From NCBI GenBank assembly GCA_963741955.1, contig CAVUKB010000005.1, forward strand, positions 128,001 through 192,000: 64,000 bases of DNA. The letters are read 5' to 3'. The stretch comes from an uncultured Acidobacteriota bacterium (GTDB lineage: Bacteria; Acidobacteriota; Thermoanaerobaculia; Gp7-AA8). Of the stretch, positions 26,260 to 32,447 are shown piece after piece. A program made the position numbers and the translations under genes. Under the pieces are notes generated by a model that ran no database searches, was not told the origin of the DNA, and was given only the letters and a program-made list of their open reading frames with translations. The first letter of the stretch is position 1. Each line of letters starts with the position of its first letter.

Positions 26260-27555
26260 ATGGGAAAGACCTACTTCATCGAGACTTGGGGCTGCCAGAT
26301 GAACGATCTGGACAGCCAGCGCTTCGCCGGACAGCTCCGGCTTCGCGGGTACACCCCCGTGGAGAACGAAACGGACGCGGACCTGATTCTTCTCAACACC
26401 TGCAGCATCCGCGACAAGTCGGAGCAGAAGGTGTACGGCCGCCTCGGCGCCATTCGCGAGCAGAAGAGCCGTGGAGCGATGATCGGCGTCTGCGGCTGCG
26501 TGGCGCAGCAGGAAGGGGAAGCACTCCTCAAACGTGCCCCCTACGTCGACTTCGTTCTCGGACCCGGGAACATCGGGAATCTCGACCGGGTGCTGAACGG
26601 CGAGACGCGGCTCGCACTCGACTTTCCGGAGGAGAGGAACTGGGATTATCTCGCAGTCGACCGTCCTTCGAAGGTTCGAGCCCAGATCACCGTCATCGAG
26701 GGGTGCAACAAGAACTGCACGTTCTGCATCGTTCCGACCACCCGCGGCCGGGAGATCTCCCGGCCGATGCGCGACATCCTCACGGAAGTTCGATACGAAA
26801 CCGGGAAGGGGAGGGTCGAGATCGAGCTCCTCGGCCAGACGGTCAACGCCTACCGCTGCCCCGAGAGCGGCGCAGGGTTCGCCGAGCTCCTCGAGGCCGT
26901 GGCAGAGATTCCGGATGTGCTCCGTCTGCGCTTCGTTACCTCGCATCCCGCGGAGGTCACCCCCCGGATGATCGAGGTGATGCGCGATCATCCGAATATC
27001 TGCCGTTTTCTTCATCTTCCGGTGCAGTCCGGTTCCTCGGCCGTCCTGAGGCGCATGAAGCGTCTCTACACGCGCGAGCGCTACCTCGAGCTCATCCACG
27101 AGATCCGGCGGGAGATCCCCGAAATGCATTTCTCGACCGACTTCATCGTGGGGTTCCCCGGTGAGACGGACGAGGATCTCGAAGCGACGCTCAGTCTGAT
27201 GCGCATCGTCCGCTTCGGATCGATATTTGCTTTCAAGTACTCTCCGCGCCCCGGAACGCCGGCTCTGCGGTTGCCGAACGTGGTATCCGACGAGATCGCG
27301 AGCGCACGTCTGACGAAAGTATTCGAGCTGCAGGAGGAGATCGAACGGGAGGCTCTGAGATCGCTGGTCGGCAAGGTGATTCCGGTCCTTTACGAGGGCC
27401 CGAGCCGCAATGACCAGCGGATGCTCTCCGGGCGGTCCGATCAGAAGTGGACGGTGAACTTCCGGGGGGATTCCTCAGTCCCGGTGGGAACGATGTTTCA
27501 GGTGCAGATCGAGGAAGCACTGCACCACTCGCTTCGAGGGGAGGCGATCCGATGA
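26260..27555 (+). CDS. miaB: tRNA-2-methylthio-N6-dimethylallyladenosine synthase
   Basis: TWGCQMN, NTCSIR, GCVAQ, CNKNCTFC radical SAM motif, TRAM domain. Confidence 0.96.
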   Translation: MGKTYFIETWGCQMNDLDSQRFAGQLRLRGYTPVENETDADLILLNTCSIRDKSEQKVYGRLGAIREQKSRGAMIGVCGCVAQQEGEALLKRAPYVDFVLGPGNIGNLDRVLNGETRLALDFPEERNWDYLAVDRPSKVRAQITVIEGCNKNCTFCIVPTTRGREISRPMRDILTEVRYETGKGRVEIELLGQTVNAYRCPESGAGFAELLEAVAEIPDVLRLRFVTSHPAEVTPRMIEVMRDHPNICRFLHLPVQSGSSAVLRRMKRLYTRERYLELIHEIRREIPEMHFSTDFIVGFPGETDEDLEATLSLMRIVRFGSIFAFKYSPRPGTPALRLPNVVSDEIASARLTKVFELQEEIEREALRSLVGKVIPVLYEGPSRNDQRMLSGRSDQKWTVNFRGDSSVPVGTMFQVQIEEALHHSLRGEAIR

Positions 27556-28034
27556 CACTCGTACCGATGTCCATCAAGGGTCTGATGCTCGATCCGGTCT
27601 CGAACTCTCCGATCGTGGTTCTTCGGGACGGAGACGAGAAGATCTACCTTCCGATCTGGGTCGGGATCTTCGAAGCGAATGCCATCGCACTCCGCCTGGA
27701 GAACGTCGATACGCCCCGTCCCATGACCCACGACCTTCTGCGCAGCATCATCGACTCGCTCCAGGCGAGGGTACAGCGGGTGATCATCAACGATCTTCGC
27801 GACAGTACGTTCTTCGCCCGGATCGAGATGACCGTGGATGGAAAGAATCTCGATATCGACGCCCGGCCGAGCGACGCCATCGCTCTCGCCCTCCGGACCG
27901 ATTCCCCGATCTTCGTCGACCAGTCCGTGCTCGATCAGGCCCAGACGATCAGCCCCGAGGAGACTACCGACGACCGGCTGAAGAAGTGGTTCGAGAATCT
28001 GGGGCCCGACGACCTCGGGAAATACGAGATGTGA
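27552..28034 (+). CDS. Bifunctional nuclease family (DUF151)
   Basis: LPIWVG.FEA.AI, RPMTHDL, DARPSDAIALA. Confidence 0.93.
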   Translation: MTLVPMSIKGLMLDPVSNSPIVVLRDGDEKIYLPIWVGIFEANAIALRLENVDTPRPMTHDLLRSIIDSLQARVQRVIINDLRDSTFFARIEMTVDGKNLDIDARPSDAIALALRTDSPIFVDQSVLDQAQTISPEETTDDRLKKWFENLGPDDLGKYEM

Positions 28035-28112
28035 CGGCACCGAGGATCGAGCATTTTGGATCGAGAATCCGAAGAGAGATGAACTATCATCGATCCACGA
28101 CCCACGATCACA

Positions 28113-28141
28113 TTGACCCGTCTCCGGCCACCTCTTAGAAT
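28113..28141 (+). promoter_or_regulatory. Sigma70-like promoter of parAB
   Basis: TTGACC-17 bp-TAGAAT, 14 nt before the parA ATG. Confidence 0.6.
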
Positions 28142-28155
28142 CGCCTCGCGAGCTC

Positions 28156-28911
28156 ATGATCATCACAGTTGCCAACCAGAAGGGTGGCGTCGGAAAGACG
28201 ACCACCACCATCAATCTTGCCGCGGCCGTCGCCAGCAAGGGATTCCGTACCCTGATCGTCGACCTCGATCCGCAGGCGAATTCGACGATGAGCTACGTCG
28301 ATCAGCGAGCGATCACCAGGTCGATGTTCGACGTACTCGTCTCCGAGGAGCTGACCCTGGAGGAGGTCGTGGTGCCGACCACGGTGGAGAACCTCTGGCT
28401 CGCTCCGTCGAAGATCGCGCTGGCGAAGCTCGAGTCGAAGCTGATCGGCGAGATCGACGGCCATTACCGCCTGAAGGACAAGATGGCACGCGCGGCGACC
28501 GAGTACGACTACATGTTCATCGACACGCCGCCGACGCTCGGGATGATCACCGTGAACGCTCTGGTTGCCTCGACGCACGTCCTGGTGCCCATCCAGTCGT
28601 CGTATTTCGCGCTGGAAGGGACGGACGACCTCCTGGAGACCATCGACAAGATCAAGGCGCGTCCGAATCCGACCCTTCAACTCCTGGGGGTGGTGATCAC
28701 CATGCATGACAAGCGGACCACTCTGGCCAGGGACATCCAGGACCAGATCGCGCAGGTCTTCGGCGACCGCCTTTTCCGGACCATGATCACCAAGTCGATT
28801 CGTCTGGAAGAGAGTCCGGCGTACAAGGAATCGATCTTCTCGTTCGCGCCGAAGTCGAGCGGCGCCATGGAGTACTACTCGCTGTCGGAAGAGATTCTCG
28901 CCAGAGTGTGA
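28156..28911 (+). CDS. parA: ParA/Soj-family ATPase
   Basis: NQKGGVGKTTT deviant Walker A, DLDPQAN, IDTPP. Confidence 0.93.
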   Translation: MIITVANQKGGVGKTTTTINLAAAVASKGFRTLIVDLDPQANSTMSYVDQRAITRSMFDVLVSEELTLEEVVVPTTVENLWLAPSKIALAKLESKLIGEIDGHYRLKDKMARAATEYDYMFIDTPPTLGMITVNALVASTHVLVPIQSSYFALEGTDDLLETIDKIKARPNPTLQLLGVVITMHDKRTTLARDIQDQIAQVFGDRLFRTMITKSIRLEESPAYKESIFSFAPKSSGAMEYYSLSEEILARV

Positions 28912-29756
28912 GCGGGGAGGAGGAACCGGTGAAACGCGGTCTGCCATCGCGAACGAAAATGCGGCACGACTCCCATTTCGTGGAGGAACTGGCGAAACGC
29001 TCCACCACCAGCGTCGGGGTGATGCTTCCGATCGACCGGATCGAAGTGAACCCCGACCAGCCCCGGACTCAGCTCGGGAACCTCGAGGAGTTGACCGCCT
29101 CGATCATCGAGAAGGGAGTTCTCGAGCCGATTCTCGTGCGGGCCATCGACGAAGCGACGTTCCAGATCATCTCCGGCGAGAGGCGATTTCGGGCAGCGAT
29201 GGCCGCCGGACTGGATGAGATCCCGGCGATCGAGCTCGACGTGGACGACCGCGAAGTGCTCGAGATCGCACTGATCGAGAACATCCAGCGGAAGGACCTG
29301 ACCCCGTTCGAAGAGGCGGAAGCCTTCCAGTTCCTGCAGGAGAAGTTCGACTACACCCACGAGAAGATCTCCCAGGTTCTCGGGAAGTCGCGGACCACGA
29401 TCACCGAGACACTCCAGCTGAACGACATCCCGGACCGGATCCGGATCCTCTGCCGCGAGGCGGGGATCTCGAGCAAGTCGGTTCTGGTCCAGATCGCGCG
29501 TGCGGGATCGAACGAAGCGATGGAGGAGATCGTCGCCCGCTTCGGTCGCGGTGATCTCACCCGGGAGCAGCTCCGGAAGGAGAAGAAGCCCGAGGTGACG
29601 AAGAAGGCGGGACGCCCGAAACACTTCAAGTATCAGTTGAAGGATCGCGCGCTTCCGTTCCGTCTCGACCTGACGTTCCGCAAGCCGAACGTCGAGAAGC
29701 GGGAGATCGTCGACGCACTCCGGCAGATCCTCGAGCGGCTCGAGTCGGAAGAGTAG
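28908..29756 (+). CDS. parB: ParB/Spo0J-family CTPase
   Basis: NPDQPR, GVLEPILV, GERRFRA, ENIQRKDL, HTH. Confidence 0.92.
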   Translation: MSGEEEPVKRGLPSRTKMRHDSHFVEELAKRSTTSVGVMLPIDRIEVNPDQPRTQLGNLEELTASIIEKGVLEPILVRAIDEATFQIISGERRFRAAMAAGLDEIPAIELDVDDREVLEIALIENIQRKDLTPFEEAEAFQFLQEKFDYTHEKISQVLGKSRTTITETLQLNDIPDRIRILCREAGISSKSVLVQIARAGSNEAMEEIVARFGRGDLTREQLRKEKKPEVTKKAGRPKHFKYQLKDRALPFRLDLTFRKPNVEKREIVDALRQILERLESEE

Positions 29757-29850
29757 AGCGCGCGACGCGCGCCCGGGGTCCTCCCGGGCCGTGGCCGAAA
29801 AGGCGGGAGTGATCTTCCGCACCGGAAAGCGGAAGCTCGTCGTTCGCTCC

Positions 29851-29886
29851 TGTCCGACCTGTCTGACATGTCGGACTTGTCCGAGA
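29851..29886. repeat. 4 x 9-bp tandem quasi-palindromic repeat (TGTCnGAcn)
   Basis: tgtccgacc|tgtctgaca|tgtcggact|tgtccgaga. Confidence 0.8.
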
Positions 29887-29914
29887 CGCCCGAGCGTTCC
29901 CCTCCGCGCGTAAT

Positions 29915-29942
29915 ATTTAACATAATCTATCTTATGAGACTC
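29915..29942 (-). other. dif site (XerC/XerD recombination site)
   Basis: Minus strand GAGTCTCATAA-GATAGA-TTATGTTAAAT; XerD arm identical to E. coli dif, 6-bp spacer, AT-rich intergenic island. Confidence 0.88.
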
Positions 29943-30128
29943 TGTGGAAATCTATGAAGAGGTGCTCCGAAGGCCCGTCCAACTCCCTCTCGCATCGCGA
30001 GTTGCCGTTCTCGAGTGCGAATTTCGACCGCCAGGCCGGTGTTGAATGCCAGCGAGTGGTGCCGATCTGCTGCTCCGGGAACTCTCGTTGCGCGATTTCG
30101 CCTCGCACCCGTTAGAATTCACCGGCCG

Positions 30129-32447
30129 ATGCGCATTCTCACCCGCTACATCATTCGGGAGATGACCACGCCGACCCTCCTGGGCTTCGGCTTCTACACG
30201 TTCATCATCCTCATGAAGACCATCTTCGAGCTCGCGGAGATGATCATCCGGCGCTCGCTCCCGTTCTCCACCGTGCTGAAACTCCTCGGGCTTTCGCTTC
30301 CGTGGATCGTGGTGCTGACCATTCCGATGTCGCTCCTGTTCGGGATCCTCATCGCGGTCGGACGGCTCTCGGCCGACTCGGAGATCATCGCCATGCGCGC
30401 CTCCGGAATCTCCACGAGCTCGATCTACCTCCCGGTCTTCCTCTTCTCGTTCGCGGTCTTCGGGGTGAACCTCTACCTGATGAATGTGGTCGTGCCGCAC
30501 GGCAACACGGCGCTCCAGTCGCTCAAGAGCCAGATCGTGAGCTCCGCGGTGGAACGGGAGATCAAGCCACACGTCTTCTACGACGAATTCGACAACCGGG
30601 TCATTTACGTCAACGACGTCGACCCGGCGGTGAACCTCTGGAAAGGCGTCTTCGTCTCCGACCGTTCCGAGAACGGGCGCCAGAAGGTCATCGTGGCTGA
30701 AAGCGGCCGCCTCTCGCGGCTCCATGGACAGGTCTGGCTCGACCTGTACAACGCCGAGACGCACGTCTACAGCCCCGAGAAACGCGACCGGTACGAAGTC
30801 AACCGCAACGCGATGCAGCGGGTTCTCCTGGTGGAGAGCTCCCCAGGGCCCGATCACGAACGCTCCCGTTCGTTCCGGGAGATGACCATCCCCGAGCTGG
30901 TGCGGGAGGTCCGTCATGCGCGGTCGGTCGACGACCCCATCGACGCCCGTCTCGCGTCGGTCGAGATCCACAAGAAGCTCTCGATCCCGTTTGCCTGCCT
31001 CGCCTTCGGAATCGTCGGACTCCCGCTCGGCATCACCAACCGCCGTGGGGGCAAGAGCTCCGGATTCTCCCTCAGTATCGGGATCATTCTTTTCTATTAC
31101 GTGATCATCAACGCCGGCGAAGACATGGCGCGTCAGGGCCGGATGCCGGCTTTTCTCGCGATGTGGATTCCGAATCTCGCGCTGATCCTCTTCGGGATCT
31201 ACCTCATACGCCGGGCGAATGCAGAGATGGGACGCCGGAGCCGCTTCCGCTTCGTCGAGCGTTTCAGTACATTCTTCTCACGAATCCGGGCCCGACGGCG
31301 GGAGGCGCGGAGCGCCGAGGATCGGCCTCCGCTCCTCTCTCGACTCGATATCGCCTTTCCGAACACCCTCGACCGCTACATCCTTCGCGAGTTCACGAAG
31401 ATCATGCTGATGGTCCTGATCTCGTCACTCCTCCTCTTCGTGATCGTCGACTACAGCACGGAGATCGCAGGAAACGTCACTGAGCACAAGATTCCACTCG
31501 CGGTGGTGGTCTCCTACTACCGCTACTTCGTGATCCAGATCCTCCACTGGGTCCTGCCGGTCTCGGTGCTGCTGGGGACGGTGATCACGTTCGGGATCTT
31601 CTCGAAAAACAACGAGGTGACGGCTGCGAAAGCGAACGGGATCTCGCTCTACCGGATCGCGTTGCCGGTCGTCATCGTCGCTGCCCTGATGAGCCTTCTG
31701 TCGTACACGATGCTCGATTTCGTCCTCCCGTACGCCAACGAGCGCGTGGCCCGGCTGAAAGATCAGATCGAAGGGAAACAGACCGCGCGCACCTTCTCCG
31801 TCCGGCAGCGGCAGTGGATCTTCGGGAAGGGCCGCTACATGTTCAACTTCCTCTCCTACGACCGGACGAACCAGACCCTCTCACAGGTCCAGGTGTTCGA
31901 GTTCGACCCGGTGTCGTTCCGGCTCACCCGCCGCGTCTGGGCCGAGGAAGCACGGTTCGACGGTGTCGGCTGGGTGTTCGTGGACGGCTGGATCCGTTCA
32001 TTCGGTGACGACGGGACCTCTTCCTACACGCCGATCGTCTCGCCGGTCCGGCTCCACTACCCGGAAAGGCCGGAGTACTTTGCGCTCGAGGCCCGCAAGC
32101 CCGACCAGATGAATTACGCGCAGCTCCGGCATTACATTCAGACTCTCAAGTCCTCCGGGTATTCGTCGGACGAGCTCTCCGTGAAGTTGTACGAGAAAAC
32201 GTCGTGGCCGTTCATCAGCCTGGTGATGGCGCTGATCGCCCTCCCCTTCTCATTCAGGATCGGGAAGCGGGGCGCGCTCTACGGGATCGGAATCGCGCTC
32301 TTCCTCGCGTTCATCTATTGGACGATCTTCGGAGTCTTCACCAAGTTCGGCGAGGTGGGCAACTTTCCGGCGATACTGTCCGCCTGGAGCGCCAACATCC
32401 TCTTCGGCCTGGCCGCGGTCTACCTCTTCCTTCGAGTCGAGACCTGA
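30129..32447 (+). CDS. Fused LptF-LptG LPS export permease
   Basis: Two tandem YjgP/YjgQ modules (RILTRYI..GRLSADSEIIAMRASG; LDRYILRE..NNEVTAAKANGISLYR). Confidence 0.9.
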   Translation: MRILTRYIIREMTTPTLLGFGFYTFIILMKTIFELAEMIIRRSLPFSTVLKLLGLSLPWIVVLTIPMSLLFGILIAVGRLSADSEIIAMRASGISTSSIYLPVFLFSFAVFGVNLYLMNVVVPHGNTALQSLKSQIVSSAVEREIKPHVFYDEFDNRVIYVNDVDPAVNLWKGVFVSDRSENGRQKVIVAESGRLSRLHGQVWLDLYNAETHVYSPEKRDRYEVNRNAMQRVLLVESSPGPDHERSRSFREMTIPELVREVRHARSVDDPIDARLASVEIHKKLSIPFACLAFGIVGLPLGITNRRGGKSSGFSLSIGIILFYYVIINAGEDMARQGRMPAFLAMWIPNLALILFGIYLIRRANAEMGRRSRFRFVERFSTFFSRIRARRREARSAEDRPPLLSRLDIAFPNTLDRYILREFTKIMLMVLISSLLLFVIVDYSTEIAGNVTEHKIPLAVVVSYYRYFVIQILHWVLPVSVLLGTVITFGIFSKNNEVTAAKANGISLYRIALPVVIVAALMSLLSYTMLDFVLPYANERVARLKDQIEGKQTARTFSVRQRQWIFGKGRYMFNFLSYDRTNQTLSQVQVFEFDPVSFRLTRRVWAEEARFDGVGWVFVDGWIRSFGDDGTSSYTPIVSPVRLHYPERPEYFALEARKPDQMNYAQLRHYIQTLKSSGYSSDELSVKLYEKTSWPFISLVMALIALPFSFRIGKRGALYGIGIALFLAFIYWTIFGVFTKFGEVGNFPAILSAWSANILFGLAAVYLFLRVET

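Follow-up and report, generated by a model that had tools for sequence, protein, structure and literature searches.

A second parAB operon beside dif at the replication terminus of an Acidobacteriota genome and its candidate centromere

A stretch of 64,000 nucleotides (the window) from an uncultured bacterium of the acidobacterial class Thermoanaerobaculia was analysed; it comprises positions 128,001-192,000 of contig CAVUKB010000005.1 (C5) in a 16-contig, 5.44-Mb assembly (GCA_963741955.1). The window carries a two-gene partition operon, here named parA2-parB2 (parAB2), which is set amid miaB, a BFN-domain gene and a fused lptFG and is followed, at most 190 bp downstream of parB2, by an array of 9-bp units and a dif site (Table 1). 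The original prediction, made by a model from the sequence alone, had described parA-parB, a promoter, a four-unit array and dif at this locus, and every one of these elements was found in its place.

Table 1. Features of the parAB2 locus in window coordinates
Feature	Position	Strand	Remarks
miaB	26260-27555		upstream flank of the parAB2 operon
BFN-domain gene (bifunctional nuclease, DUF151)	27447-28034	+	upstream neighbour of parA2, conserved across classes
sigma-70-like promoter of parA2	28113-28141	+	TTGACC-17-TAGAAT, 10/12 consensus matches
parA2	28156-28911	+	small ParA/Soj-type deviant Walker ATPase, 251 aa; Pfam AAA_31 2.2e-56, CbiA 9.4e-26
parB2	28929-29756	+	275 aa, GTG start; Pfam ParB_N (PF02195) 1.8e-28, HTH_ParB (PF17762) 3.6e-14
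four 9-bp units	29849-29886		member of a dispersed GTCNGAC-N2 repeat family; Tandem Repeats Finder period 9, 4.0 copies
predicted chromosomal dif	29915-29942	-	XerC arm GAGTCTCATAA, centre GATAGA, XerD arm TTATGTTAAAT
fused lptF-lptG	30129-32447	+	772 aa, conserved neighbour beyond dif

The operon and the origin-side system of the same genome

The Walker A motif of ParA2, NQKGGVGKTT (residues 8-17), is of the deviant type and includes the signature lysine; a regular expression for it gave 104 matches across the fetched loci. ParB2 scored 152 bits with TIGR00180 (cut-off 58). It possesses N-domain motifs of the CTP type (GERRFRA and ENIQRKD), a helix-turn-helix (HTH) and a C-terminal beta-beta-alpha domain, and residues G83, E84, R85, R86, E117, N118, R121, R155, T159 and E160 were invariant in 48 orthologs. 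The three parts are also seen in the AlphaFold model (predicted local distance difference test, pLDDT, 81.5), where the C-terminal unit, a putative dimerisation domain for which no Pfam match was obtained past residue 197, occupies residues 233-274 with pLDDT values of 85-94. The solved structures nearest to ParB2 were the ParB proteins of Caulobacter, Thermus, Myxococcus and Bacillus (including Spo0J) and Noc; the best relatives by sequence in the PDB were 6t1f, 1vz0, 7bnk and 6sdk, and the top Foldseek match of the model was Noc 7nfu (E 1.6e-14).

Exactly two ParB_N loci were present in the genome, namely parB2 on C5 and an rsmG-parA-parB cluster on contig C13. The latter was located 8.6 kb from dnaA and beside two parS-like sites with one mismatch (C13:60,506 and 62,959); parAB2 is indeed a second system, as had been suspected. 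In a tblastn search of the genome with ParA2 (E up to 1e-5) only ParA2 itself and the canonical ParA were recovered, the two being 41% identical. The canonical ParB carries the usual GKERPTVANFLRLL helix. Its recognition helix reads GKERPTVANFL and differs from that of ParB2, GKSRTTITETL, for which the original prediction had drawn the comparison with Spo0J; ParB2 orthologs share an invariant R..x..TE where canonical ParBs read A-N. Judged from these features, ParB2 appears to be a ParB with intact predicted CTP-binding motifs and a changed recognition helix. The parAB2 locus is not origin-proximal and lacks parS of the canonical type TGTTNCACGTGAAACA: no such site occurred in the window at up to 3 mismatches, in agreement with what had been noted before, and in both respects the locus departs from a canonical chromosomal ParABS.

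A Noc-like protein, as in the Noc-NBS (Noc-binding site) system of Firmicutes, was one of the options raised in the original prediction, and both are ParB paralogues with changed DNA specificity. Noc is an origin-encoded protein with an N-terminal membrane-targeting helix; it works without a partner ParA, and its numerous binding sites are absent from the terminus. ParB2, in contrast, has a partner: in 114 of 118 loci (locus counts are approximate because some genomes were fetched twice, e.g. L026 and L045) the gene immediately preceding parB2 encodes a ParA2 ortholog (54-88% identity), and ParA2 is more conserved than ParB2. Moreover, ParB2 reached only 147 bits with the Noc model TIGR04285, whose cut-off is 315. 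The Noc-like reading fails on these two counts.

With regard to expression, three promoter-like sites were found between 27900 and 30200 against 0.4 expected from shuffled sequences. With its -10 box located 14 nt ahead of the ATG, the parA2 promoter would, if used, give an mRNA with almost no leader; a TAGAAT, TACAAT or TAAAAT box recurs at the same distance from the ATG in relatives of the family. At parB2, GGAGGAGG is located 6-8 nt upstream of the GTG at 28929, an alternative GTG being present at 28908. GC-rich hairpins are present downstream of parB2, and no Rfam match was obtained in 27900-30200 at E up to 0.1.

dif, the replication terminus and conservation of the locus

The search for dif made use of a 23-base pattern with up to one mismatch and of a reversed control. 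It gave a single match in the genome and none with the control. The site has the 28-bp layout 11-6-11, and in the XerD arm it agrees letter for letter with the E. coli K12 dif given in a table of PMC2731167. Elsewhere in the genome two matches exceeded the cut-off of the XerD model (375 and 330 bits against 329.6), and these were taken as XerD and XerC. The GC skew of C5 was positive for the first ~155 kb and negative over the remaining 1.31 Mb, with the cumulative maximum at C5:155,681, only 2.2 kb from dif at C5:157,915. The window's dif can thus be described as the predicted chromosomal XerCD site at the skew switch of the terminus. Contig C13, which bears dnaA and the canonical parABS, showed a weak skew maximum at 35-55 kb in place of a minimum. 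On contig C4 a stretch of ~54 kb (80-134 kb) was strongly opposite in skew and could be an inversion or an island; the skew minimum at C4:134 kb was considered as the origin and rejected, being the edge of this segment. No cluster of DnaA boxes was found.

Conservation was examined at two levels. The class sample consisted of 40 relatives from 12 families and, with the present genome, of 41 genomes. ParB2 orthologs of full length (41-75% identity) occurred in 38 of the 40 relatives, and nearly all of them also possessed a canonical ParB, whose 34-45% identity was confined to the N-domain and HTH. The dif search gave a unique match for 33 of the 41. On 30 occasions out of these 33 (28 of 31 if the unpublished G022 and G030 are left out) the match lay on the parB2 contig, always downstream of parB2 at 25 bp to 3.7 kb and in 25 cases within 1 kb, while in the remaining three parB2 stood at a contig end. 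The orientation of dif with respect to parB2 varied among relatives. The linkage of parAB and dif proposed for related genomes thus holds, and the three points on which the original prediction had staked itself all came out in its favour: there is a second ParAB, the only dif lies at the skew switch and the linkage is kept in relatives.

The phylum sample comprised 301 Acidobacteriota genomes that were at least 95% complete, and ParB2, called at E up to 1e-40, was present in 179. In all ten closed, single-contig chromosomes parB2 was 0.416-0.4998 chromosome lengths from dnaA (G041 0.497, G100 0.470, G117 0.476, G129 0.473, G245 0.497, G300 0.498, G307 0.500, G186 0.416, G227 0.471 and G195 ~0.47, the last calculated with a rounded size). 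The canonical ParB was 9-16 kb from dnaA in the five closed genomes where it was located (G041, G186, G195, G227 and G307). In nine of the ten closed chromosomes parB2 was followed by dif at a distance of 35 bp to 3.2 kb. When eight loci from closed genomes (L117-L124, corresponding to G100, G129, G245, G300, G307, G117, G186 and G227) were scanned with Pfam, they revealed the complete block miaB-BFN-parA2-parB2-dif-lptFG in four of five closed genomes of another family; metK was situated beyond lptFG in two of the block-bearing loci and a recN-like gene further upstream in three of the four. The BFN gene is a constant upstream partner of the parAB2 operon in distant families of Acidobacteriota. 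In the window's lptF-lptG fusion both TIGR04407 and TIGR04408 were above cut-off, and a fusion recurs near dif in distant Acidobacteriota (open reading frames of 662-950 aa in L117-L124).

It might be thought that a par operon next to dif is a stability module of a plasmid or of an integrative mobile element exploiting Xer (IMEX) that was captured at the terminus and domesticated, and the plasmid version of this had been the second suggestion of the original prediction. Plasmids and Xer-exploiting islands do pair par genes with Xer sites (PMC4207684 and PMC3334931), and the non-canonical helix of ParB2 would fit such a source. However, the nearest plasmid ParBs reached 31-37% identity at best, below the 38-44% identity to canonical chromosomal ParB. 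The GC content of parAB2 and its G+C content at third codon positions (0.85-0.86) are like those of the neighbours (0.75-0.87 at third positions), which are housekeeping genes, and the single dif-like site of the genome has no second site flanking the genes. The presence of ParB2 in nearly the whole class and in more than half of the phylum sample, with conserved synteny, also argues against capture. We consider this explanation very unlikely; a recent plasmid or IMEX origin of parAB2 is unlikely, and at most the origin would be a very ancient one.

A candidate centromere

The candidate for the cis-acting site of the system, parS2, is the 16-bp palindrome TGTCGGC-NN-GCCGACA. This genome contains one perfect copy, TGTCGGCNNGCCGACA, outside the window at C5:115,652-115,667 (L125:2053-2068), where ~0.06 copies per genome would be expected by chance according to our own arithmetic from base composition. 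The copy is intergenic with an AT-rich spacer, 134 bp upstream of rnpB (L125:2202-2573; Rfam RF00010, 303 bits). From there it is 41.3 kb to parB2, which lies downstream, and 42.2 kb to dif. In many orthologs the palindrome lies in parB2 itself, where (A)TGTCGGC-NN-GCCGACA(T) encodes C-R-[RLQH]-A-D-I; the ParB2 of the window reads CREAGI at the place of CRxADI and the palindrome is lost there.

One or two perfect copies were present in 35 of the 41 class genomes, against one of 41 with the reversed control. The palindrome was inside parB2 in nine class genomes, whereas in the three with a ParB2 devoid of CRxADI it preceded parA2 by 100-270 bp. In the family of the window and its sister family it lay 41-58 kb away on the upstream side of parA2 in all ten genomes that have both on one contig; 13 further class genomes were too fragmented for placement. 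Across the phylum the palindrome occurred in 142 of the 179 genomes with ParB2 (140 of 177 without the unpublished G030 and G160) and in two of the 122 without ParB2, the reversed control giving five of 301. Among the phylum matches listed, it was within or next to parAB2, including positions just downstream of parB2, and a few genomes (e.g. G165 and G123) had clusters of 2-4 palindromes within ~40 kb. In the two-contig genomes G310, G264 and G165 it is the main contig that carries 2-4 palindromes within ~40 kb of parAB2; in G310 the other contig, presumably a separate replicon, encodes a third ParB. Palindromes with one mismatch were present in some fetched loci, e.g. L117, L058 and L084. In its genomic behaviour the palindrome resembles a centromere of ParB2, and we propose it as candidate parS2.

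Several other sequences were considered as cis sites and rejected. The original prediction had pointed to the TGTCnGAC array between parB2 and dif. This was not borne out: the array is one of 22 GTCNGAC-N2 arrays of at least three units dispersed over contigs C1, C4, C5, C6, C7 and C10, and most parB2-dif spacers of orthologous loci, which can be as short as ~25 bp, do not contain it. The 9-bp unit is self-complementary and occurs 3-8 times per array; its TGTC...GACA ends are those of candidate parS2, the spacing being different. The 13-mer GTGATCATCAACG, three of whose four genomic copies lie within 30 kb of dif, encodes V-I-I-N and is unconserved in relatives, and GGATCCGGATCC inside parB2 is a product of D-R-I-R codons that is not kept at the DNA level. 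Perfect palindromes of 12-16 bp clustered within 100 kb of dif were trivial ones only. No palindrome outside coding motifs was common to 30 orthologous loci within 1.5 kb; when 21 parAB2 loci were aligned as DNA, the highly conserved 16-mers were confined to conserved protein motifs, with no palindrome among them; and the 10-mers common to the flanks of 85 loci represented only BFN coding sequence, the start of parA2 and dif.

Two further elements deserve mention. Between the BFN stop codon and the parA2 promoter (28042-28111) the window contains a degenerate heptamer hairpin array of GGATCGA-like units, a loop and TCGATCC-like units. The same layout, with a unit repeated four times, a loop and the reverse-complement unit repeated four times, was seen between parA2 and parB2 in the relatives L015 and L037. 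As a cis site of the locus these arrays were discarded, for they are of a genome-wide type, with 569 period-7 arrays of at least 2.8 copies, 24 of which form clear inverted pairs. In Acidiferrales-type loci (L065, L075, L081, L086, L089, L111 etc.) a GGCC-(N0-4)-ATATAT-(N0-4)-GGCC sequence is conserved ~50 bp upstream of parA2, and these loci showed neither a dif-like site nor the TGTCGGC palindrome within 5 kb. The GGCC-ATATAT-GGCC palindrome is clade-specific and absent from this genome, and it was dismissed as the site here.

Possible role of the system at the terminus

Taken together, these observations make it probable that parA2-parB2 is the protein half of a second, complete and vertically inherited ParABS system (ParABS2) that is tied to the terminus and to dif. 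A number of findings weigh against it. No perfect palindrome was present in 37 of the 179 ParB2 genomes, nor in the stretch fetched for 86 of the 118 loci. Since candidate parS2 is 42 kb from dif in this genome, a complex of ParB2 formed there would not necessarily extend to dif. The pattern search gave no dif-like site within 5 kb for about 53 of 80 phylum-wide loci, mostly from metagenome-assembled genomes of Terriglobia/Acidiferrales and Blastocatellia, some of them having little flank, and in the closed genome of G195 dif is 24.7 kb from parB2. There was no V-shaped skew minimum at dnaA on C13, so that skew did not confirm the origin in this fragmented assembly. The relatives are not independent, and the counts therefore measure consistency and overstate the number of events. 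Finally, parA2 is absent beside parB2 in the three closed genomes G300 (L120), G186 (L123) and G227 (L124). All three have kept parB2 and an adjacent dif, and in L124 the BFN gene abuts parB2.

The synteny of the whole miaB-BFN-parAB2-dif-lptFG block across distant classes raises the question of whether the linkage of parB2 and dif is in part ancient gene order, perhaps without selection on the pair. In that case the position would simply be inherited and ParABS2 would serve elsewhere, e.g. in SMC loading, in transcriptional control of the KorB kind or as a backup partition system. The insertions of 2.6-4.5 kb tolerated between parB2 and dif would fit such an explanation, as would the lineages that lack dif within 5 kb. 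On the other hand, candidate parS2 has been relocated several times and yet is at most 58 kb from parB2 wherever it could be placed, and G300 keeps parB2 and dif together though parA2 is lost and no lptFG was seen among the open reading frames scanned. Furthermore, it is usually around the terminus that bacterial chromosomes show the least synteny. Inheritance of gene order as the whole explanation seems improbable to us.

If ParABS2 is tied to the terminus, its task may be to position or segregate this region. Of the claim that ParAB acts at ter, the location and the existence of a second system were confirmed, while the role there is one that we infer. Loading at parS2, ParB2 would form a sliding clamp by which the terminus region is marked. 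ParA2, bound to the nucleoid through ATP, might position the ParB2-parS2 complex in the manner of type I plasmid partition, so that one copy of the complex would rest at mid-nucleoid and two copies would be moved apart. dif could thereby be held near the division plane before the sister termini are helped to separate. That ParABS2 is a dedicated, motor-driven system of this kind, in which ParB2 clamps mark the dif region, ParA2 first centres and then separates the termini, and a cue for the division site may be supplied as well, is a possibility that we put forward tentatively.

The terminus might instead be a mere landmark, ParABS2 being devoted to control of the division site or to positioning of other cargo, like MipZ-ParB, PomXYZ or Noc; ParA2 or ParB2 bound there would then favour or hinder assembly of the Z-ring. 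Most bacteria have their terminus at mid-cell when they divide (PMC4177673). In addition, no MinD above the TIGR01968 cut-off was found in 11 of 11 genomes, i.e. this one and ten relatives (best scores 66-73 bits, the highest 72.9, against 212.9), a result that depends on one family model. The retention of ParB2 without ParA2 in three closed genomes would fit this explanation, too. Against this stand the lack of evidence linking ParABS2 to FtsZ, the ordinary nature of ParA2, which is a small ParA/Soj as close to canonical ParA as the above identity indicates, and the low score with the Noc model. We regard this explanation as improbable.

How does ParABS2 compare with known systems? With chromosomal ParABS (Soj/Spo0J-parS of Bacillus and Thermus, ParAB-parS of Caulobacter and Myxococcus) it shares a small KGGVGKT ParA, a ParB with CTP-type N-domain, HTH and predicted C-terminal domain, and a candidate site that is a 16-bp palindrome within the operon or next to it. 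It differs in its place at the terminus beside dif, in its coexistence with a canonical origin-side system, in the helix TITETL instead of V/I-A-N-x-L, and in a candidate site that is usually single-copy and unrelated to the parS consensus. MatP-matS of enterobacteria and vibrios, which organises the Ter macrodomain, and ZapT of Caulobacter are likewise DNA-binding systems dedicated to the terminus region, and they are considered to keep ter and dif at mid-cell (PMC4177673 and PMC7858052). Their protein families, however, are unrelated to those of ParABS2, and MatP has many matS sites and lacks an ATPase motor, whereas ParABS2 possesses a ParA motor and one or two candidate sites in most genomes. 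Secondary replicons such as chromosome II of Vibrio cholerae also provide the cell with an additional ParAB that has a site specificity of its own, and parA/parB beside dif are known from the gonococcal genetic island. These serve the origin of another replicon or a mobile island, while ParABS2 is part of the core chromosome, where it occupies the main replicon's terminus, with housekeeping flanks and conservation across the phylum.

ParABS is the textbook machine of origin segregation. A full-text literature search yielded no paper on a terminus-linked ParAB(S) of a main chromosome, nor one on a ParB that adjoins the dif of such a chromosome. According to reviews, parS is most often near the origin (PMC7333895) and segregation of the terminus is ascribed to FtsK and Topo IV (PMC7174722). 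We would therefore file ParABS2 as a system of a known kind, yet one that appears to be dedicated to the terminus. If this is true, no earlier natural example would exist of a bacterium that runs two ParABS systems on a single chromosome, each serving one pole of the replication cycle. A conserved terminus ParABS with its own specificity would provide a large soil phylum with active placing and separation of its chromosome ends. It would also become testable how two ParB-parS pairs avoid cross-talk, what effect a ParB clamp has next to dif, XerCD and FtsK, and how the terminus stays at mid-cell without MatP.

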